64,000 nucleotides of DNA from Alphaproteobacteria bacterium (GTDB taxonomy: Bacteria > Pseudomonadota > Alphaproteobacteria > GCA-2731375): assembly GCA_965225945.1 (NCBI GenBank), contig CBDDBZ010000036.1, forward strand, positions 128,001 to 192,000, written 5' to 3'. A program made the position numbers and the translations under genes. This document shows, piece after piece, positions 34,189 through 57,914 of this stretch (position 1 is its first letter; every line of letters begins with the position of its first letter). The notes beneath the pieces were generated by a model. It saw only the letters and a list, made by a program, of their open reading frames with translations. It had not been told where the DNA came from and searched no databases.

Positions 34189-35598
34189 ATGGAGTACGTC
34201 CTCGACGTTGCGATCTACGTCGTCCCGTTTCTCGTGTTGATAACGGTGCTCGTCTACATCCACGAAATGGGCCACTACCTCGTCGCGCGCTGGTGCGACG
34301 TCCGGGTCGATACCTTTTCCATCGGCTTCGGGCGGGAGATCTATGGTTGGACCAACAGGCACGGCACGCGTTGGAAGATCTCCTGGCTTCCGCTCGGCGG
34401 TTACGTCAAGTTCTTCGGCGACATGAACGCCACCAGCGCGCCGAACGGAGAGATCCTCGATGCCCTGACGCCCGAGGAGCGCGAGGTGGCGTTCCATCAC
34501 AAGCGGCTCTGGCAGCGGACGGCGATCGTGATGGGCGGACCGGCCGCCAACCTGATTTACGCCGTGCTGGTGTTGGCGGTGGTGTTCATGACTTTCGGCG
34601 ACCGGCTCACGCGGCCCGAGGTGGGCTATGTCGTGCCCGACGGCGCCGCCGCCACCGCCGGCCTCGAGCGGGGCGATGTCATCCTGGCGGTCGACGGACG
34701 CGGGGTCGATCGCTTCGAGGCTGTGGCGCAGGTCGCCTTTCTCAATCCTGGCAAGCCCATGGAGCTCGACATTCGCCGGGGCGATTCTGAGTTGCGACTG
34801 CGCCTCGTGCCGACGCCGGTGACCACGGACCGTCTGGATGGCGTGGAGCGGACGATTGGCGATATCGGCTTTATCGCGGCGAGCCCCCCGCTGGTGGGCG
34901 GCGTGCGGGTCGGCAGCCCGGCGGAAGCGGCGGGTTTCCAACCGGGCGATCGAATCGTCGCGGTCGACGGCGTGGCGGTGGACGTGTTCTGGCAGCTCCA
35001 GGACATCGTCCGCGCGAGCGCCGGGCGCTCGCTGGATGTCGAGGTTCGTCGTGGCGAGGAGATGGTGAGGCTCGGCGTCGCGGCGGAAAAGACGGCGCTG
35101 CCGGACGGCTCGGGCGGGACCGTGGAGCGCTATCTGATCGGCATTCACGGCGCCCCGCCACCGCCGGTCCGCCTCGGCGTGTCGAAGGCTTTGTCGAGGG
35201 CGCTGACGTATTCCGTCGATCTGGTCGATCAGACGGTCGAATACCTGGGCCAGGTCGTGGCCGGCGATCGCGGCACCGAGGATCTGGGCGGGCCGATCCG
35301 AATCGCCCATGTTTCCGGTTTAGCGGCGAAACACGGTTTGGAGTCGTTCATAATGCTCTCGGTCCTCCTTTCGCTGAATCTCGGCCTGATCAACTTGCTG
35401 CCCGTGCCGGTGCTCGACGGCGGGCATTTGCTGTTGTACGGCCTCGAGGCGTTGCGTGGGCGTCCGCTGACGGAGCGCATGCAGGAGTACGCTTTTCGAT
35501 TTGGGCTCGTGGTGATATTGAGCTTGGCCATATTCGTGACCTGGAACGACCTGGTGCAGCTCCGCATCGTCGACGTCGTCGCCGGCTTGTTCTCGTAG
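34189..35598 (+). CDS. rseP: RIP metalloprotease RseP (two PDZ domains)
   Basis: HEMGH, FSIGFG, PLGGYVKF, GGPAAN, NLLPVPVLDGGHL. Confidence 0.95.
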   Translation: MEYVLDVAIYVVPFLVLITVLVYIHEMGHYLVARWCDVRVDTFSIGFGREIYGWTNRHGTRWKISWLPLGGYVKFFGDMNATSAPNGEILDALTPEEREVAFHHKRLWQRTAIVMGGPAANLIYAVLVLAVVFMTFGDRLTRPEVGYVVPDGAAATAGLERGDVILAVDGRGVDRFEAVAQVAFLNPGKPMELDIRRGDSELRLRLVPTPVTTDRLDGVERTIGDIGFIAASPPLVGGVRVGSPAEAAGFQPGDRIVAVDGVAVDVFWQLQDIVRASAGRSLDVEVRRGEEMVRLGVAAEKTALPDGSGGTVERYLIGIHGAPPPPVRLGVSKALSRALTYSVDLVDQTVEYLGQVVAGDRGTEDLGGPIRIAHVSGLAAKHGLESFIMLSVLLSLNLGLINLLPVPVLDGGHLLLYGLEALRGRPLTERMQEYAFRFGLVVILSLAIFVTWNDLVQLRIVDVVAGLFS

Positions 35599-35620: not shown

Positions 35621-37897
35621 ATGAAGCTACGCGCCGCGTTCGTCGCGACCTTGGCCGCGATCGTGCTTCTGTTCGTCCTGCTCCAGGCGGCATGGGCACA
35701 GGGCGGCGTCATTCGTGAAATCCGCGTCGTCGGCAACAACCGCATCGAGGCGGACACCGTACTCTCTCGCATGCTGCTGGCGCCGGGCGACGCATACGAT
35801 GCGGCGCGCGCCGACCGCTCGCTCAAGGCGCTGTTTGATTCGGGTCTCTTCGCCGACGTCGTCTTCCACCTTCAGGGCGAGGTGTTGGTAGTGACAGTGC
35901 TGGAGAACCCGGTGATCAACCGGATTGCCTTCGAGGGCAACAAGCGCATACCCGACGAGAGCATGGAGCAGGAGGTGGCCCTCAGGCCGCGCGAGGTCTA
36001 CACGCGCAGCAAGATCCAGTCCGCCTCGAACCGCATTATCCAGCTCTATCGCCGCTCGGGTCGCTTCGCCGCCACCGTCGAGCCGAAGATCATCAACCTC
36101 GAGCAGAATCGCGTCGACGTCGCCTTCGAGATCAACGAGGGGCCGCTGACCGGTGTCGGCAAGATCGACTTCATCGGCAATCGCGCCTTCGACGACGGCG
36201 ATCTGCGCGATGTGATCGTGACCAAGGAGACAGCATGGTATCGCTTTCTGACCTCCGCCGATTCCTACGATCCCGATCGCCTGACGCTCGATCGCGACCA
36301 GCTTCGCCGGCACTACCGCGACGAAGGCTACGCCGATTTCCGCGTGCTCTCCTCGGTGGCCGAGCTCACCGCCGATCGCAGGTCCTTCTTCATCACCTTC
36401 AGCGTGGACGAGGGCGAGCCGTATGATTTCGGCGAGATCGACTTGACGACGACGCTCAAGAACTTGGATGTGGAGCAGCTGCGCGGTGAATTGACGACGA
36501 TCCAGGGCGAACGCTTCGACGCCTCCACGATCGAGGACTCGCGGGTCAATCTGGCCGACGCGCTCGGCCAGCTCGGCTATGCCTTCGTCGAGATCCGCCC
36601 CCGGATCAGCCGCGATCGGGAGGCGTTGACCATAGCGATTGCTTACGAGGTCAACGAGGGGCCGAGGGTCTATGTCGAGCGAATCAACATCACCGGCAAC
36701 GTGCGCACGCTCGACAAGGTGATCCGCCGCGAGTTCCGTTTCGCCGAGGGGGATGCCTTCAATACCTCGAAGTACCGCCGATCGCGTCAACGCGTACGCA
36801 AACTGGGCTTCTTCGACCGGGTCGAGTTGACTCGCCAGCCCGGCAGCCAGCCGGACCGCGTGATCGTCAACTTGGACGTGCAGGAGCGCTCGACCGGCGA
36901 GCTGATCTTCGGCGCCGGCTTCTCGAGCTCGGAGGCGCTGATCGGCGACATCTCGATCCGCGAGCGCAACCTGTTGGGCCGCGGCCAAGATCTCAGGATT
37001 TCCGTCGCTGCGTCTTTCGTTCGTCAGCAGATCGACATCTCCTTCACCGAGCCCTACTTTCTGGATCGCGAGTTGGCCTTCGGCGTCGACGCCTTTCACA
37101 CCCGCCGCGATCTCCAAGCGCGGAGCTCGTTCGATCAGAGGTTGACCGGGGGCCGCCTTCGCACCGCGTTCGACATTAACGAACGGCTGCGCGCCTCGCT
37201 CAACTACGGGTTACGGATCGACGTGATCAACGACGTCGATGCCTCCGCCTCGGAGTTCATTAAAGCCGAGGAGGGCGAGGAAGTGACCTCGTCCATCGGC
37301 TATCGGTTGGCTTACGATACCTTGGACGATCGGTTCCTGCCGACCACCGGCTACCGCGTGTCGGTGGTCCAGGAGTTCGCCGGTCTCGGTGGCAGCTCCC
37401 GCTATGTCCAGACCACCGCCAAGTTCGTCTACTACTACCCCTTCACCGACGACTGGGTCGGCAGCATTTTGTTGAATGGCGGTCAGATCATCGGGATCGA
37501 CGACGACATCGGCATCATCAATAGATTCTTCCTCGGCGGCGATAACCTACAGGGCTTTGAGTCCGGCGGCGTCGGTCCGAGGGACGCGGTGACCGACGAC
37601 TCTCTCGGCGGCAACATCTTCGCCGCGGCGACGGCGGAACTCCGCGTGCCGCTCGAATTTTTCAGTGACCTCGGCGTGAGCGGCCGCCTCTTTACCGACA
37701 TCGGTACCCTCTACGACATCGACGTCAACGGCGGCGGTACCTTGCTCGATTCGACCGCGCCCCGCATGTCGGTCGGTGCCGGGATTTCCTGGCGCTCGCC
37801 GTTCGGACCGATCCGGATGGACTTCGCACAGGCGATCGTCAAGGAGAATTTCGACAAGGAGGAGTTCTTCCGTTTCAGCTTTGGCACGAGGTTCTGA
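35621..37897 (+). CDS. bamA: Outer membrane protein assembly factor BamA
   Basis: POTRA repeats (GNNRIE, GNVRTLDKVIRRE), SFTEPYFLD, SPFGPIRMD, C-terminal FSFGTRF. Confidence 0.96.
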   Translation: MKLRAAFVATLAAIVLLFVLLQAAWAQGGVIREIRVVGNNRIEADTVLSRMLLAPGDAYDAARADRSLKALFDSGLFADVVFHLQGEVLVVTVLENPVINRIAFEGNKRIPDESMEQEVALRPREVYTRSKIQSASNRIIQLYRRSGRFAATVEPKIINLEQNRVDVAFEINEGPLTGVGKIDFIGNRAFDDGDLRDVIVTKETAWYRFLTSADSYDPDRLTLDRDQLRRHYRDEGYADFRVLSSVAELTADRRSFFITFSVDEGEPYDFGEIDLTTTLKNLDVEQLRGELTTIQGERFDASTIEDSRVNLADALGQLGYAFVEIRPRISRDREALTIAIAYEVNEGPRVYVERINITGNVRTLDKVIRREFRFAEGDAFNTSKYRRSRQRVRKLGFFDRVELTRQPGSQPDRVIVNLDVQERSTGELIFGAGFSSSEALIGDISIRERNLLGRGQDLRISVAASFVRQQIDISFTEPYFLDRELAFGVDAFHTRRDLQARSSFDQRLTGGRLRTAFDINERLRASLNYGLRIDVINDVDASASEFIKAEEGEEVTSSIGYRLAYDTLDDRFLPTTGYRVSVVQEFAGLGGSSRYVQTTAKFVYYYPFTDDWVGSILLNGGQIIGIDDDIGIINRFFLGGDNLQGFESGGVGPRDAVTDDSLGGNIFAAATAELRVPLEFFSDLGVSGRLFTDIGTLYDIDVNGGGTLLDSTAPRMSVGAGISWRSPFGPIRMDFAQAIVKENFDKEEFFRFSFGTRF

Positions 37898-37900
37898 GCC

Positions 37901-38473
37901 GTGTTGGGGACTGTCCCGCGCGCGGCGTTGCTCGCCCTGGCGATTCATATGTGCTTGCCGCTGATCTGGGATAGCGGAGCGCGCGCCGCCGAGGCGATGC
38001 CTCCCGCCTTGATCGCAATTCTCGACTTCAAGCGGGTGATGCGGGACAGCGCGGCGTCCAAGGACATCCGGCGCCAGATCGAAGCCCACCGAAAGTCGTT
38101 TCAAGCGGAAATCAAGCGGGCCGAGGGTAAGTTGCGCGAGGAGGAGGAGAGCCTCAAACGGCAGCGCGCAACCATGGCACCCGATGTCTTCGCCAAGCGG
38201 CGGCGCGCATTCGAAAAAAAAGTGATCGCGCTGCAACGCAAGGTCCAGAATCGCACCCGCGCCCTCGACAATGCTCATAGCCGAGCCATGGCGGAACTCA
38301 GGAAGCCTTTCAGAAAGTTGATCTCCGACTTGGCCAAGGAACGCGGTTACAACTTCATCATCGACAACCGGCACATCTACATCAAAATCGACGGTTACGA
38401 CATCACTCCAGAGGTGATGCGACGTCTCGACGAGAAGGTGCCGAAGATCATGGTGCCCAGGCCGGAAAAATGA
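37901..38473 (+). CDS. OmpH/Skp-family periplasmic chaperone
   Basis: Signal peptide, IAILDFKRVM..S.A, long coiled coil, DITPEVMRRLD; directly after bamA. Confidence 0.85.
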   Translation: MLGTVPRAALLALAIHMCLPLIWDSGARAAEAMPPALIAILDFKRVMRDSAASKDIRRQIEAHRKSFQAEIKRAEGKLREEEESLKRQRATMAPDVFAKRRRAFEKKVIALQRKVQNRTRALDNAHSRAMAELRKPFRKLISDLAKERGYNFIIDNRHIYIKIDGYDITPEVMRRLDEKVPKIMVPRPEK

Positions 38474-38925
38474 ACGAGGGCGAGGGCGAGGTCGTCGACA
38501 TCTCGCGGATCATGGCGATGATTCCCCATCGCTACCCGATGCTGTTGATCGATCGGGTGGTCGATGTGGTGGCGGGCAGCTCGGCCCGAGGGATCAAGAA
38601 CGTCACGATCAACGAGCCGTATTTTCAGGGCCACTTTCCGAACTTGCCCGTGATGCCGGGTGTGCTGATCGTCGAGGCCATGGCGCAGACGGCGGCGATC
38701 TTGGTGGTACATAGCCTCGGCGCGGAGGCGGAGGGGCGCCACGTCTACTTCGTGTCCATCGACGATTGTCGCTTTCGCCGCCCCGTCAGACCGGGGGACG
38801 TGATGTATATCGACGTCGAGAAGCTTCAGGCTCGGCGCAACGTCTGGCGCTTCAGCGGTACCGTCTTGGTCGGCGGACAACGCGCGGCCGAGGCGAAGTT
38901 CGCCGCGATGATCCTCGACGATTAG
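38470..38925 (+). CDS. fabZ: 3-hydroxyacyl-ACP dehydratase
   Basis: IPHRYPMLLIDRV, KNVTINEPYFQGHFP..PVMPGVLIVEAMAQ, FRRPVRPGD. Confidence 0.96.
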   Translation: MNEGEGEVVDISRIMAMIPHRYPMLLIDRVVDVVAGSSARGIKNVTINEPYFQGHFPNLPVMPGVLIVEAMAQTAAILVVHSLGAEAEGRHVYFVSIDDCRFRRPVRPGDVMYIDVEKLQARRNVWRFSGTVLVGGQRAAEAKFAAMILDD

Positions 38926-38988
38926 AGCCATTCAAGATTGCTAGAACCCACTCGTTCCCCCGGCCCGGCGCTTCGGCGGATGCCCATG

Positions 38989-39189
38989 CTATAGCAGGTA
39001 GAGGAGGGTGGCCGACGCGACCGCCACGAGCGCCAGCCAAGCGCTCGCGCGGCGAAACATTGGGCGCGGCGGCTTCGAATTGTCGTTCGCGCCCTGGAGT
39101 CGCGCGCGCCGGGCGAGGCCGAGGTAGCTGGCCGCCGTCCGCGTCGGTGGCGCCAGTGCCCGGGGCCGATGGTCCGCGCTCCGCTTCAT
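38989..39189 (-). CDS. Small hypothetical tail-anchored membrane protein (66 aa)
   Basis: Purine-rich upstream GAGGGGCGAGG; ANDN motif; C-terminal hydrophobic helix AWLALVAVASATLLYLL; co-oriented downstream of gltA. Confidence 0.5.
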   Translation of the reverse strand: MKRSADHRPRALAPPTRTAASYLGLARRARLQGANDNSKPPRPMFRRASAWLALVAVASATLLYLL

Positions 39190-39222
39190 CCTCGCCCCTC
39201 GCCCCGGTCCGCGCTCGAGTCT

Positions 39223-40518
39223 TCAGCCCCGCCGGTGAAGTGGCACGTACTTGCGCGGCTTCTCGCCGGTGTAGATCTGCCTCGGTCGGCCGATCTTCTG
39301 CATTGGATCCTCGATCATCTCGTTCCATTGCGCGATCCAGCCGACGGTGCGGGCGAGCGCGAAGATCGCCGTGAACATGCTGGTCGGGAAGCCCATGGCC
39401 CGGAGAATGATGCCGGAATAGAAGTCGACGTTGGGATAGAGCTTGCGCTCGACGAAATAAGCATCCTCCAGCGCGATTTTCTCCAGCTCCATCGCCAGTT
39501 TCAGCGTCGGCTCGCTCTTGACCCCCAGCTCGTCAAGCACCTCATGGCAGGTCTGCTGCATCACCTTGGCGCGCGGATCGTAGTTCTTGTAAACCCGATG
39601 GCCGAAGCCCATGAGCCGGAAGGGGTCATCCTTATCCTTCGCCTTGGCGATGAATTGGTTGATTTTCGAGACATCACCGATCTCGCCCAGCATGGCGAGC
39701 ACGGCCTCGTTGGCGCCGCCGTGCGCCGGGCCCCACAGACAGGCGATGCCGGCCGCGATACAGGCGAAGGGATTGGCCCCGGAGGAGCCGGCGAGCCGCA
39801 CCGTCGAGGTCGAGGCGTTCTGTTCATGGTCGGCGTGGAGGATGAAGATGCGGTCCATCGCCCGGATCAACACGGGGTTGGGCTCGTAGTCCTCCGCCGG
39901 CACGCCGAAGGTCATGCGCAGGAAGTTCTCCGTGTAGCTCTGATCGTTCCTGGGATAGAGGAAGGGTTGGCCGATGGAATATTTGTACGCCATCGCCGCG
40001 ATCGTCGGCATCTTGGCGATCAGCCGGTAACTCGCCACCATTCGGTGATGGGGATCGTCGATATCCAGGCTGTCGTGATAGAAGGCGGAGAGGGCACCGA
40101 CCACGCCGACCATGATCGCCATCGGGTGCGCATCGCGGCGGAAGCCGCGGAAGAACTGCACCAACTGCTCGTGGATCATCGTGTGGTAGGTGACGTTGTG
40201 CTCGAACTCGTCCTTCTCATCGCGCGTCGGCAGGGCGCCATAGAGCAGCAGGTAGCAGACCTCCATGAAGTCGCTGTGTTCGGCCAAATCGTCGATCGAA
40301 TAGCCGCGGTAGAGCAGGATGCCTTCATCGCCGTCGATGAAGGTGATCTTGCTCTCGCAGCTCGCCGTCGCGACGAAACCGGGATCATAGGTGAAATGGC
40401 CAGTCTCCGCGTAGAGGCGGCGGATGTCGATCGCTTTTGGGCCCATCGAGCCACTCATCAGCGGGAGCTCGTAGCCCTGGTTCGTGGTGGCGTCGGTCAG
40501 CGTGACGTTTTCGGTCAT
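39223..40518 (-). CDS. gltA: Citrate synthase
   Basis: [59 protein letters not shown]. Confidence 0.97.
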
Positions 40519-40721
40519 TCGTTGGTCCCGATTCGTTGTGGCACCGCGTCGTGGGGCGCCATGGCGCGGACGAGGCGTCATGAACCGCCGCGCGGCTCGA
40601 TGTATCCTTCCCCGTACTATAGGCGAAGCCGGTCAAGCCGGAAATGGGTTCGATTCCCAGGTCGCGTCGGGCGCCGATCAAAAAGATTAACCACGATAAT
40701 TAAGTGCTTGAATAACAATAA

Positions 40722-42128
40722 TTATTCGGCATTGATATCTTCCAGGCGAGCGAGACTTTCCGCGCGCCCGAGCGACCACAGCACGTCATAGATTCCGGGC
40801 GAGACGGCACGTCCCGTCAGCGCGGCGCGTAGCGGTTGGGCGACCTTGCCGAGCTTCAGCCCGCGGTCCTCGACGAAGCCGGCGATGCTCGCCTCCAAGC
40901 TTTCCGGCGACCAAGGCTCGATCGCGCCGAGGATTCCGGCGACCTCGCCCAGGAGTGCCCGCGCGTCGGCGTTGCTGAGCGCCTTGGCCGCCTTCTGGTC
41001 GGGAGCGAGCGGGCGTTCGGCGAGGCAGAAGGCCGCTGCCTCGGCCAACTCGACCACCGTCTTGGCTCGGCTGGCGAGCGCCGGCAGCGCGCGGCGGAGG
41101 CGGGAGACCGTCTCCTCGCCGAGGGTGCGACCGGTCTCCCGCTCGATTTGGGCGACGAGATGCGGCAACAGCAGGTCCTCGCCGGCGGTCCTGAGGTAGT
41201 GGGCGTTGACGCTGTTCAGCTTGGCGAAATCGAAGCGCGCCGCCCCCTTGTTGACGGCGGCGAGGTCGAACCATTCGATCGCCCTAGGCCGGCTGATGAT
41301 CTCGTCGTCGCCGTGGCTCCAGCCGAGACGCAGCAGGTAGTTGCAGATCGCCTCCGCCAGATAGCCCATGTCGCGATAGTCCTGGACGCCAAGCGCCCCA
41401 TGCCGCTTGGAAAGCTTGGCCCCGTCTTCGCCGTGAATCAGGGGGATGTGCGCGAAGGCCGGTGGCGTCCAGCCCATCGCCTGGTAGATCGTCAGTTGCC
41501 GCGCGGCGTTGGTCAGGTGATCGTCGCCCCGGATCACGTGGCTCACCTCCATGTCGTGATCGTCGACCACCACCGCCAGCATGTAAGTCGGCGTGCCGTC
41601 GCTCCGCAGCAGCACCATGTCGTCGATCTGCGCGTTCTGGGTCACCACGTCACCCTGGACCGAATCGTGGACGATCGTCTCGCCCTCGCGCGGCGCCTTG
41701 ATGCGAATCACCGGGTCGCCGCCAGCGGGCGCTTCCGCCGGGTCGCGGTCGCGCCAGCGCCCGTCATAGAGCATCGAACGTCCTTCGGCCCGGGCGGCCG
41801 CGCGCATCGCCGCCAACTCCTCCGGAGTGGCCCAGCAGCGATAGGCCTCGCCCTGGCGCACCAATTCGCGCGCCACCTCGGCGTGCCGCTCGGCCCGGGC
41901 GAATTGCGAGACCACCTCGCCGTCCCAATCGAGGCCGAGCCATTCGAGGCCGTCGAGAATGGCGGCGATCGCCGCCTCGCTCGATCGGGCGCGGTCGGTA
42001 TCCTCGATCCTGAGGCGGAAGCGACCGCCGTGGTGGCGGGTGAAGAGCCAGTTGAAGAGCGCCGTGCGCGCGCCACCGATATGGAGGAATCCCGTCGGCG
42101 AGGGGGCGAAGCGGGTGACGACGGTCAT
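40722..42128 (-). CDS. gltX: Glutamate--tRNA ligase
   Basis: [40 protein letters not shown]. Confidence 0.97.
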
Positions 42129-42214
42129 TCGTGTTCCCCGAAGGATGACAAGGGGAGCGGAAGAGCGGCACACTCCCTAGCACAACCTCCGGATCATGGC
42201 GATAGAACCCAATC

Positions 42215-44366
42215 ATGACGGTCGAGAGCAGATCGGGCCGACGTCGCGAAGGTGCCATCGGGGCAGCTTCGAGGTCCGTCTCCGCCTGGGCGCGAGGTCC
42301 GGGCTTGGTGATCGGGGCGCGGCTGGCGGCGGAGCGCGATCGTCTCGCGCTGTGGACGCCGGTGGCGATCGGTCTCGGCATCGCGGTCTATTTCGCCTTG
42401 CCGGCGGAGCCGAGCGATCACGTCGGTCCCGCGCTGCTGGCGCTCGCCGTCTTCGGGTTGCTGGTCAGCCGGTATCGAGGGCCGTTCCTGCTGCTGGCGC
42501 TTGGCTTCGGGGCGGCGGCGGTCGGCTTCCAGGCGGCCGCTTGGCGCACCGCCTGGGTCGCGGCGCCGGTGCTCGAGAAAGACATCGGGCCGACATGGGT
42601 CACCGGGCGGATCGTGGAGACCTCGATCAAGGGGCGGGGCTGGCGGCTCGTTCTCGACCAACTGGAGATTCCCCGTCTCGATCCGGCGCGTGTCCCGGCG
42701 CGCGCGCGGATCTAAGGTCTGGAGCCTCGGTGACGCGCCCGTCCGGGTCGGCGATTCCGTGCGTCTCCTGGCGAAACTGATGCCGCCATCGGGACCGGCC
42801 GCGCCGGGCGCTCACGACTTCGCCCGCGCCGCCTACTACCAGCGATTGGGCGCGGTCGGCTTCGCCCTGTCGTCGCCCGAGCGTTCGGCCCTCGGCGAGG
42901 CGAGCCGGTGGGATTGGCGGATCCACGTGGCCGCCTGGCGGGAGGCGATCTCGGCCCGGGTGCGAGACGCCCTCCCGGGCGCGCCGGGTGCCGTCGCCGC
43001 GGCCCTGATGACCGGCGATCGCGGCGCCATCGCCGAATCCGTCCTGAAAGATCTCCGCAATTCCGGTCTCGCCCATCTCCTCGCCATATCGGGGCTGCAC
43101 ATCGGCTTGATCGCGGCGGTGCTGTTTTTCGCCAGCCGCGCCGGCCTGGCGCTGATCGAGCCCTTGGCGCTCTGTCGGCCGATCAAGAAATGGGCGGCGC
43201 TGATCGCCCTCGTCGGCGCCTTCGGCTATCTCGTCCCCACCGGAGCGACGGTGCCGACGCAGCGTGCCTTCGTGATGACCGCCTTGGTGCTGATCGCGGT
43301 GCTGATGGATCGACGGGCGATTTCGATGCGGCTCGTCGCGTGGGCGGCGGCGCTGGTCCTGCTGTCGGCGCCGGAAAGCCTGCTTTCGGTCAGCTTCCAG
43401 ATGTCCTTCGCCGCGGTCGTGGCCTTGATCGCGGGCTACGAGACTCTCGGTCCGCGATTCTCAGCGTGGCGCGCGGGCGGCGGGCCGGGCCGGAGAATAC
43501 CGCTCTACGTCGCCGGCGTCGCGCTCACGACGGTCATCGCGAGCCTCGCCACCGCGCCCTTCGCCGCCTATCACTTCAATCGCATCGCCCATTTCGGCCT
43601 TCTGGCGAACCTCCTCGCCGTGCCGACCATGGCGCTCTGGATCATGCCCTGGGCGGTGCTGACCTATGTCGTGATGCCGCTCGGCCTCGAGGCCGCGCTG
43701 CTCGCCATGATGGGCTTGGGCATCGAGGCGGTCCTGGCGACGGCGCGGACCGTCGCCGAATTGCCGAACGCCACGAGCCAAGTCGCCTCGATGGCGCCGT
43801 TCACGCTGGCGCTCACCGCTCTCGGCGGCCTTTGGCTCTGCCTCTGGCGTGGCAGATGGCGCCTGTTCGGCCTCGGTGCGGTTCTGATCGCTTTCCTCGC
43901 GGTCCCGTTCTCGCGGCCGCCGGACATTCTGATCGACGGGCAGGGCAAAATCGTCGCGCTCAGGGACGAGGCGGGCCGAGTGCACCTTTCCATGCGGCGG
44001 GTCAAGGGATACGTGCCGTCCGTCTGGCTTCGCCGCGCGGGCGAGGCGGCGTTCCACCACGATGCCTGGCGTTGTGACGGGCTCGGCTGTATCGCGCGGC
44101 TAAAGACGCGGCGGATCGCTCATGTCTGGGACGCGCGTGCCTTGCACGAAGACTGTACCCTCGTCGCCATCGTCCTCAGCAGGACACCCGTTCGCGACTG
44201 CCCGGGCCCGCAAATCGTGCTCGATCGATTCGCTCTCTGGCGCGAGGGACCGCATGCCATTTGGCTGGAGGAGGGCGGCGCGCGCGTCGTCTCGAGCGCC
44301 GCCGTGCGAGGCGACTGGCCCTGGGTGCCGAAACGCGCCCGGGGTGGGCGCCGGGGAACTCAATAG
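42215..44366 (+). CDS. comEC: ComEC/Rec2 competence channel with a +1 frameshift near 42713
   Basis: N-terminal half ([14 protein letters not shown]) stops at TAA 42713-5; continues in another frame with [44 protein letters not shown]. Confidence 0.88.
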
Positions 44367-54884: not shown

Positions 54885-56536
<1,652 letters not shown>

Positions 56537-56590
56537 GGACCACCGCCGTTCGTTTTGACAGCCGGCGAGGCCGACGTTAAGGAGGCGGGC

Positions 56591-56611
56591 GCTAGTGGAT
56601 AGAATCCACTA
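56591..56611. promoter_or_regulatory. Palindrome upstream of eno
   Basis: TAGTGGAT-AGA-ATCCACTA with perfect 8-bp arms; 18 bp shared with 15236-15253. Confidence 0.45.
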
Positions 56612-56612
56612 A

Positions 56613-57914
<1,302 letters not shown>

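Follow-up and report, generated by a model that had tools for sequence, protein, structure and literature searches.

Can an outer membrane be maintained in a large-genome alphaproteobacterium from which the genes for lipopolysaccharide (LPS) have disappeared? This question is raised by a 64,000-nucleotide stretch of an alphaproteobacterial genome (assembly GCA_965225945.1, contig CBDDBZ010000036.1, positions 128,001 to 192,000; hereafter the window, or G000:C36:128001-192000, where G000 is the genome that holds it), in which the bamA-skp-fabZ-gltA locus carries none of the lipid A genes lpxD, lpxA, lpxI and lpxB found at this site in LPS-bearing relatives. An initial annotation of the window had read this as a clean, old loss of the Raetz pathway, implying an alternative outer-leaflet lipid. 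The comparisons below make it very probable that the genus lost its whole LPS system before its species split and keeps an outer membrane predicted to be LPS-free; the lipids that may replace LPS in the outer leaflet are candidates, and a surviving WaaA-like protein has probably been repurposed.

Absence of lipid A genes from the bamA-skp-fabZ-gltA locus

G000 is a 6.27 Mb draft genome (39 contigs; 66% G+C; 96.55% complete with 5.58% contamination) and was compared with the genomes of two congeneric species, G001 (7.4 Mb; 20 contigs; 98% complete) and G002 (8.0 Mb; 5 contigs; 96% complete), the genus thus being represented by three species genomes. The low contig counts of the two congeners suggest that they derive from cultured isolates. 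Comparison genomes from the same family were G004 (4.9 Mb; 2 contigs) and G009 (7.4 Mb; 4 contigs), and the five-genome hidden Markov model (HMM) searches cover G000, G001, G002, G004 and G009. A broader order sample consists of 33 genomes of one family and eight genera, with the seven sister genera bearing LPS. Gene order in the window was derived from its open reading frames (ORFs) and their Pfam matches, and putative scars were examined by tblastn of the relatives' ORFs against the whole of G000, with Pfam annotation on both sides.

The syntenic locus of G004 reads cdsA, dxr, rseP, bamA, skp, lpxD, fabZ, lpxA, lpxI, lpxB, gltA, gltX and comEC, with gltA and gltX on the minus strand, and its lpx genes are recognizable by their Pfam domains (LpxD and Hexapep in lpxD; Hexapep and Acetyltransf_11 in lpxA; LpxI_N and LpxI_C in lpxI; LpxB in lpxB). 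Every flanking gene has a counterpart in the window, sharing 47-81% amino acid identity, and none exists for the four lpx genes. ORFs, Pfam matches and synteny with G004 agree with the flanking order initially described, which is preceded upstream of rseP by pyrH, frr, uppS, cdsA and dxr. The direct ATGA overlap of skp and fabZ is likewise evident in the sequence, and the gap of about 300 bp reported between fabZ and gltA measures 297 bp (Table 1). No lpx remnant is present between window positions 37800 and 39300, where relaxed tblastn (E<=10) with eight LpxD, LpxA, LpxI and LpxB proteins of G004 and G009 yields chance fragments of at most 21.6 bits, in agreement with the original observation that no hexapeptide-repeat or LpxB remnant persists at the locus. 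Across the whole of G000, the best matches to the same eight queries are two hexapeptide-repeat paralogs (E-values 1.5e-4 and 6e-3).

Table 1. Features at the two putative excision sites of the window (window coordinates)
Feature	Position	Strand	Basis
rseP, M50 protease with PDZ domains, upstream flank	34189..35598	+	Pfam Peptidase_M50 1.6e-65; 58% identity to G009 ortholog
bamA, outer-membrane beta-barrel assembly	35621..37897	+	Pfam Omp85 9.9e-70 and 5 POTRA; 65% identity to G009 BamA
skp, OmpH-like periplasmic chaperone	37901..38473	+	Pfam OmpH 1.1e-23
Scar 1a, skp stop and fabZ start sharing ATGA, lpxD site in relatives	38470..38473	+	Sequence; G004 lpxD here is 342 aa
fabZ, 3-hydroxyacyl-ACP (acyl carrier protein) dehydratase, kept	38470..38925	+	Pfam FabA 1.2e-36; 66-72% identity to G004/G009
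Scar 1b, 297-bp spacer, lpxA-lpxI-lpxB site in relatives (about 3 kb)	38926..39222	.	G004 locus L017 7940-10798 holds LpxA, LpxI, LpxB
gltA, citrate synthase, downstream flank	39223..40581	-	Pfam Citrate_synt 1.6e-142; 79-81% identity to G004/G009
gltX, glutamyl-tRNA synthetase, flank	40722..42173	-	Pfam tRNA-synt_1c 9e-90
comEC, flank	42501..44366	+	Pfam Competence 1.6e-65
pyrG, CTP synthase, scar 2 flank	54908..56536	+	Pfam CTP_synth_N and GATase; 77% identity to G009
Scar 2, 103-bp spacer, site of kdsA and a 186-aa gene in G009	56537..56639	.	G009 locus comparison
eno, enolase, scar 2 flank	56640..57914	+	Pfam Enolase_N/Enolase_C

A 158-aa ORF without a Pfam match (window positions 38852-39328, minus strand) covers the fabZ-gltA spacer, extends on either side into the 3' end of the neighboring gene, and is probably not a gene, as the spacer shows no DNA-level conservation in G001.

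Genome-wide absence of LPS synthesis and transport genes

LpxC (PF03331) has no match in G000, G001 or G002 and is found in 28/33 order genomes, with the other two negatives, G013 and G047, being just 81% and 77% complete. In the five-genome searches, LpxA (TIGR01852), LpxD (TIGR01853), LpxB and LpxK have no match over cut-off in the three species of the genus, and neither do LptD, LptF/G and LptA/LptD_N (LptE lay outside the search). Each of these seven is over cut-off in two of the five genomes, namely G004 and G009, and the same LPS HMMs score 300-370 bits in the sister genera. The reservation initially attached to the locus, that lpxD may have been relocated alone, is answered by the lack of an LpxD over cut-off in all three species.

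The tblastn searches of G000 gave no match for LpxI, LpxK, the LpxL-type acyltransferase, DUF374 or LptC, while the best match of LptB is a generic ATP-binding cassette (ABC) ATPase of 36% identity, and the MsbA-like query meets only 38% identical paralogs and no ortholog. With regard to Kdo (3-deoxy-D-manno-octulosonate), G000 and G001 give no match to the KdsA HMM, the 30/33 order genomes with a KdsB over cut-off include none of the genus, and no member of the CTP_transf_3 family occurs in G000. A KdsA is encoded by G002 in a different contig region, among genes without a G000 counterpart (G002:C2:921968-926977; loci L024 and L119), and KdsB is represented in the same accessory region only by a split pair of sub-threshold fragments. 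The kdsA and split kdsB genes of G002 probably form an accessory cluster for a Kdo-containing polysaccharide rather than for LPS.

A search of the whole genome and its relatives had been proposed as the check on the initial annotation. The lpx, lpt and kds sets are missing from G000 in this search, and a check for the contrary outcome, intact lpxA, lpxC, lpxD, lpxB, lpxK and waaA at other places in G000, came out negative save for a lone altered waaA-like gene.

Excision of LPS genes at multiple loci

A second scar in the window lies between pyrG and eno. The corresponding G009 locus (L022) comprises pyrG, kdsA (DAHP_synth_1; e-value: 5.2e-70), a 186-aa ORF and eno, and neither of the two intervening genes has a tblastn match in G000. 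Where relatives carry lptF-lptG-lptD, G000 has pepA (C33:113465-114955) followed by surA (C33:115412-116722), and the flanks of the RNase D-like/lptC-lptA-lptB/rpoN locus (C25:132405-133019 and 130660-132201) lie 203 bp apart. At the ftsZ/lpxC/bamD-recN locus, lpxC is missing behind ftsQAZ of G000, which ends at C32:154442, and bamD-recN is now found at C31:50395-52981. From the relatives' set of msbA-like ABC transporter, DUF374, waaA, lpxK and lpxL-type genes, only waaA is left.

Excision with retention of the flanking genes is seen at six separate loci, two of these scars being held by the window, and assembly gaps are therefore ruled out. The loss of the LPS genes predates the divergence of the three species, and is no assembly artefact, because the bamA-skp-fabZ-gltA layout is collinear in G001 and G002, with synonymous divergence among the three species amounting to 0.4-0.95. 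The clean and old loss initially postulated is thus matched by intact flanks at the scars and by a state common to all three species, and its large-genome setting by the unreduced 6.27 Mb of G000.

Retention of outer membrane assembly

BamA, Skp, BamD (YfiO; e-value: 2e-53) and SurA are intact in G000 and share 47-66% amino acid identity with their orthologs in LPS-bearing relatives. Because these assembly components are kept, an outer membrane is predicted to be still built.

A constrained and altered WaaA-like glycosyltransferase

The exception to the pattern of loss is a full-length waaA-like gene of glycosyltransferase family 30 (GT30), intact in all three species of the genus. In G000 it is located at C37:95939-97441 (locus L019, 7940-9442), with probable limits of 96143-97441, and a GGDEF-EAL gene and a group of transposase genes (IS66, IS21 and IS1595) lie upstream of it. 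The genus proteins match the Pfam domain Glycos_transf_N (PF04413) with 164.9-169 bits against a cut-off of 23.9, which are the three lowest scores among the 32 order genomes with a match (remainder: 189-213 bits), and share 46-47% identity with the WaaA of G009, compared to 49-59% for other genera. Pairwise ratios of nonsynonymous to synonymous substitution (dN/dS) in the genus are 0.19-0.22, with values of 0.13-0.31 for five neighboring or comparison genes, and the waaA-like gene is therefore under purifying selection.

The encoded protein resembles the WaaA/KdtA Kdo transferase of Aquifex aeolicus (2XCI/2XCU) in its GT30 N-domain, its 47% identity to the G009 WaaA and several key residues. 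Unlike waaA/kdtA, the gene is orphaned, with no lpxK, lpxL, msbA-like or DUF374 genes around it and no Kdo pathway in G000. The route to the cytidine monophosphate (CMP)-Kdo donor (KdsA/KdsB) is absent in both G000 and G001, as are the Lpx enzymes for the lipid IVA acceptor.

The 32 order sequences were aligned, 29 of them from LpxC-bearing or incomplete relatives (three of these rows partial). Outside the genus 95 columns are invariant, of which 28 deviate in at least one of the three genus species, compared to 0-11 deviations in 95-106 columns in leave-one-genus-out controls. The individual genus genomes deviate at 20, 16 and 19 of the 95 columns. The deviation count was considered as proof that the WaaA-like protein is degenerate, and is weakened in this role by the canonical, distant WaaA of G158, which deviates at 22 of the 95 columns versus 16-20 in the genus. 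As such, only the identity of the changed motif residues appears informative.

The SVGE motif of the relatives is replaced in the genus by GE(S/G)E, STH by G(I/T)D and PRH by P(H/R/F)(E/D). Positions were mapped onto the A. aeolicus protein through a HMMER alignment, with the published number taken as the chain index minus 21, an inferred offset which places S28, G30, E31, S54, R56, E98, W102, K162, P211, R212, F247, G248, L250, N273 and E276 on the right letters. The S28 position is occupied by G in all three species, G30 by S in two of the three, and R212 by H in G000, R in G001 and F in G002. Residues E31, E98, W102, N273 and E276 are kept, while K162 is changed to R in G002 and retained in the other two species. 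In the available text of a review on the A. aeolicus protein, R212 contacts the CMP phosphate and is required for activity, and mutagenesis demonstrates the importance of G30, E31, E98 and R212, as well as S28/S54/R56 (PMC6286764). The WaaA-like protein thus appears constrained, with changes nevertheless at acceptor-side and leaving-group positions.

A search of 20 LpxC-negative Alphaproteobacteria, one of them G000, yields a GT30 match only in G000, G113 and G158. G113, a 3.5 Mb LpxC-negative genome of another family, harbors an orphan GT30 gene at locus L176 (G113:C23:22446-25967) in which the same motifs are lost. Its SVGE motif reads ETSE, the arginine of PRH is lost, and it deviates at 50 of the 95 invariant columns. 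The changes in G113 and in the genus may reflect convergent repurposing or convergent decay.

Candidate replacement lipids

The initial annotation had proposed a search for serine palmitoyltransferase (SPT) and hopanoid genes, among others. The hopanoid genes are present with scores over their cut-offs; for SPT, the candidate is an SPT-like protein that scores below cut-off. Squalene-hopene cyclase (shc) occurs in 4/33 order genomes, namely the three genus species and G007. The G000 cluster (C26:29120-35774) reads hpnB-hpnD-shc-(228-aa ORF, not scanned)-hpnH, with NCBIfam bitscores (cut-offs) of 826.8 (431) for Shc, 555.6 (225) for HpnH, 301.8 (279) for HpnD and 509.8 (379) for HpnB. Hopanoids order lipid A-containing membranes.

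The SPT-like protein is an oxoamine synthase (AOS; G000 C35:129924-131240), encoded in an operon of major facilitator superfamily (MFS) transporter, AOS and short-chain dehydrogenase/reductase (SDR) genes that is conserved in the three species. Among the 33 order genomes, AOS is found at 83-100% identity only in the genus, with the others at <=39% and the sole exception being a 203-residue fragment in G010 (46% identity). Each genus genome encodes two oxoamine synthases, one of which is the 5-aminolevulinate synthase HemA. The hemA gene of G000 (C33:93734-95022) is split into overlapping ORFs of 319 and 122 aa, both matching TIGR01821, through a frameshift or an error of assembly. Among solved structures, AOS is closest to the Sphingobacterium SPT (237 bits), with a BioF/Kbl enzyme at 211 and the Sphingomonas SPT at 193 bits. 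From NCBIfam, homolog names, PDB and ESM Atlas, its class is ambiguous between SPT-like and BioF/Kbl-like.

AOS homologs sharing 44-49% identity occur in three named alphaproteobacterial records, where an SDR homolog then follows. In Psychromarinibacter halotolerans (NZ_JARGYD010000001.1; L132, 2911-14319), the cluster encodes a phosphoenolpyruvate (PEP) mutase/nucleotidyltransferase (NTP-transferase), a phosphonopyruvate-decarboxylase-like protein, an aminotransferase, AOS, DUF4833, inositol-1-phosphate synthase (MIPS), SDR and two LptF/G-like permeases, and looks like a system by which a sphingoid lipid with a headgroup is made and exported. G000 has homologs of all of these genes bar the permeases and one hypothetical gene, spread over several contigs. 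Pairs of LptF/LptG-like permeases adjoin SPT-like AOS genes both in L132 and in G009 (G009:C2:5890199-5895391), which suggests that there are LptFG-like exporters devoted to sphingoid, inositol or phosphono-lipids rather than LPS.

MIPS is found in 4/33 order genomes, comprising the three genus species and G046, a metagenome-assembled genome with 7% contamination. In G000 it is clustered (C34:363460-366838) with an inositol monophosphatase (IMPase)-family gene and an NTP-transferase/cytidine diphosphate (CDP)-alcohol-transferase fusion. A further CDP-alcohol phosphatidyltransferase (C35:137731-138450), which is shared at >=69% identity in the genus only and adjoins an ABC half-transporter gene, resembles phosphatidylinositol phosphate (PIP) synthase, although it falls below both NCBIfam cut-offs (140 vs 180 bits and 91 vs 170 bits). 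A trio of DUF4833, CDP-alcohol transferase and glycosyltransferase family 4 (GT4) genes is located at C29:81345-83861. PEP mutase, considered as a genus marker for a phosphonolipid headgroup, was rejected, since the true gene is present in 10/33 order genomes, seven of them LPS-bearing. Hopanoids, the product of the SPT-like operon and inositol lipids are thus the candidates for the alternative outer-leaflet lipid that would be expected.

Comparison with known LPS-free bacteria

The class sample consists of 401 alphaproteobacterial genomes, G000 included, drawn evenly at a requested completeness of >=90%. Two of the genomes counted, G239 and G065, are unpublished; both are LpxC-positive, and they enter no other result. 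LpxC is present in 352 and absent from 49 of these. Many of the negatives are 0.5-2 Mb in size, and there are also genomes of 3.5-5.7 Mb in other families, the larger ones including G133 (5.7 Mb), G098 (5.4 Mb) and G061 (4.6 Mb). The family of G133 also holds LpxC-positive genomes, a pattern which hints at further genus-level losses. As the LpxC-negatives span other families and include genomes of 3.5-5.7 Mb, LPS loss appears to be recurrent in the Alphaproteobacteria, with the present genus a likely further independent case. A WaaA-like gene is kept by the genus, whereas 17 of the 19 other LpxC-negative Alphaproteobacteria searched have none.

Sphingomonas and its relatives have glycosphingolipid outer leaflets. 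The genus resembles Sphingomonas as a free-living diderm alphaproteobacterium without a lipid A pathway. It belongs, however, to another order, and because 28/33 genomes of that order keep LpxC, the lineage is not Sphingomonadales-like in gene content; its loss is independent and only genus-deep. In addition, no protein of the genus reaches the alphaproteobacterial SPT cut-off of NCBIfam (222 vs 670 bits). In the obligate intracellular Alphaproteobacteria, LPS loss of the Anaplasmataceae type accompanies genome reduction. The lipid A genes are absent here also, but the genus genomes, at 6.27, 7.4 and 8.0 Mb, are unreduced.

The available text of a study on Caulobacter crescentus names Sphingomonas, Borrelia and Treponema as natural lipid A-free diderms, and describes Sphingomonas spp. 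as naturally without lipid A and with anionic sphingolipids on their surface (PMC9393093). According to the same text, a C. crescentus lpxC mutant is viable only with fur inactivated and with the anionic sphingolipid ceramide phosphoglycerate. The genus looks like a natural counterpart of this alphaproteobacterial outer membrane without lipid A; the Caulobacter strain is a laboratory mutant with suppressors, whereas the loss in the genus is natural, complete and inclusive of Lpt. The cpgABC and spt genes were not identified in the genus, and bcerS/cerR lay outside the search. Likeness to the Bacteroidetes inositol-lipid clusters, as described in the available text of PMC9246714, lies in the placement of MIPS beside an NTP-transferase and a CDP-alcohol phosphatidyltransferase, and in the PIP-synthase-like gene. 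In the genus, by contrast, the inositol genes are on three contigs, and no phosphoinositol dihydroceramide (PI-DHC) synthase of the haloacid dehalogenase (HAD) type was identified. No reports of further LPS-free Alphaproteobacteria were found in the literature, which was searched by topic without the genus name. The genus appears to represent a new, independent, genus-level case of the known class of LPS-free diderms.

Evaluation of alternative explanations

Under the scenario that we favor, the genus would have lost lpxA, lpxC, lpxD, lpxI, lpxB, lpxK and the lpxL-type gene, kdsA and kdsB, the MsbA-like flippase and DUF374, and lptA, lptB, lptC, lptD, lptF and lptG, with each gene or operon cut out precisely and its housekeeping neighbors left. 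The outer leaflet would be filled by lipid pathways present in the genus and for the most part missing from its LPS-bearing relatives. The best candidates are extended hopanoids (hpnB-hpnD-shc-hpnH), a sphingoid-type amino-alcohol lipid from the MFS / SPT-like oxoamine synthase / SDR operon, and inositol lipids produced with MIPS, three CDP-alcohol phosphotransferases, a GT4 glycosyltransferase and the adjacent ABC half-transporter. The WaaA-like GT30, without donor pathway or acceptor, would probably have taken another role. A more elaborate form of this scenario, in which the outer leaflet was rebuilt as a eukaryote-like mix of hopanoids, serving as sterol surrogates, and inositol-phosphoryl sphingoid lipids or glycerolipids, with the GT30 glycosylating the anchor with a non-Kdo sugar, is speculative and rather improbable; if true, it would constitute the first GT30 activity outside Kdo transfer, maybe convergent with that of G113.

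Several points weigh against the favored scenario. A complete loss would not lead one to expect the survival of a waaA-like gene under selection, the completeness of G000 is 96.55% and its contamination 5.58%, the absence screen left out core glycosyltransferases, WaaL, LpxH, LptE and bCerS/CerR, and the LPS-free state of the outer membrane is a prediction from gene content. With regard to the replacement lipids, AOS scores below all NCBIfam equivalog cut-offs (BioF: 356 vs 426 bits; SPT: 222-324 vs 500-670 bits), its 120 listed homologs and ESM Atlas neighbors are mostly named 8-amino-7-oxononanoate synthase, and its closest plasmid homologs include an enzyme linked to a polyketide synthase (PKS), such that its product may be a secondary metabolite and not a membrane lipid. 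The MIPS cluster fits a pathway for an inositol-phosphate solute (di-myo-inositol-phosphate) equally; both a solute use of CDP-inositol and a putative Bacteroidetes lipid pathway are mentioned in the available text of PMC9246714. Furthermore, shc, MIPS and PEP mutase also occur outside the genus, and the gains of lipid genes all track one clade, and as such count as one event and not as independent support.

Whether LPS genes are present and were missed, being unassembled, relocated or too divergent, might be asked of a 39-contig draft, and of lpxD in particular, which the initial annotation noted to be relocated in some lineages. However, three independent assemblies, of which one consists of 5 contigs, simultaneously lack some twenty genes from at least seven loci, the flanks abut on single contigs at each scar, and HMMs that readily detect these proteins in the sister genera, together with tblastn searches that yield hexapeptide-repeat noise only, leave this explanation with next to no probability. 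The same is true of the proposal that the lineage is a monoderm, or becoming one, having lost its outer membrane along with LPS: all tested LPS synthesis and transport genes are absent, as it would predict, but a BamA with five POTRA domains is intact alongside Skp, BamD and SurA, and it can hardly be upheld. It is quite improbable that non-homologous enzymes still produce a glycolipid anchor, lipid A-like or other, which the WaaA-like GT30 glycosylates, such that the envelope would be remodelled around a functional analog of LPS rather than simply LPS-free. The intact gene in three of three species, with dN/dS values like those of its neighbors, and the substitutions common to the three species at positions invariant in the relatives, suggestive of a fixed new state, would be in keeping with such an anchor, but G000 and G001 lack both Kdo synthase and CMP-Kdo synthetase, G000 has no CTP_transf_3 member, Lpt machinery for export is missing, and the CMP-phosphate-binding R212 position is H in G000 and F in G002.

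An LPS-free outer membrane without a dedicated substitute, made of glycerophospholipid and lipoproteins, with the lipid genes serving stress tolerance, osmolytes and secondary metabolism, deserves more serious consideration, albeit that we regard it as unlikely. It would accommodate the scores of AOS below all SPT and BioF cut-offs, the resemblance of the MIPS cluster to the CDP-inositol solute pathway in the available text of PMC9246714, the occurrence of shc, MIPS and PEP mutase in a small number of relatives with LPS, and the fact that no canonical SPT was shown, in searches that did not extend to bCerS/CerR. It does not readily explain why four capacities related to lipids are gathered in precisely the clade that has lost its LPS, or why AOS homologs elsewhere cluster with SDR, MIPS, DUF4833, phosphonate-headgroup genes and LptF/G-like permeases, and in Caulobacter the loss of lipid A requires an anionic sphingolipid, as stated in the available text of PMC9393093.

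Implications for Gram-negative biology

In Gram-negative bacteria, lipid A is regarded as near-essential, polymyxins as well as inhibitors of LpxC and Lpt are aimed at it, and to our knowledge natural LPS-free diderms are few. A large-genome, soil-type alphaproteobacterium and its two sister species would thus constitute a natural experiment in Gram-negative life without LPS. With a loss that is genus-deep and seven LPS-bearing sister genera beside it, the contrast is far cleaner than that of Sphingomonas versus everything else, and lets one ask which gained or retained genes permit the loss of LPS in a free-living bacterium with a large genome. The candidate gains are hopanoids, the SPT-like operon and inositol lipid genes, and the retained components are BamA, BamD, SurA, Skp and a remodelled WaaA. 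If the congeners are cultured isolates, lipid analysis and genetics could test the loss of LPS directly. The orphan GT30, maintained under selection, may furthermore lead to a new activity in a family for which only Kdo transfer is known.

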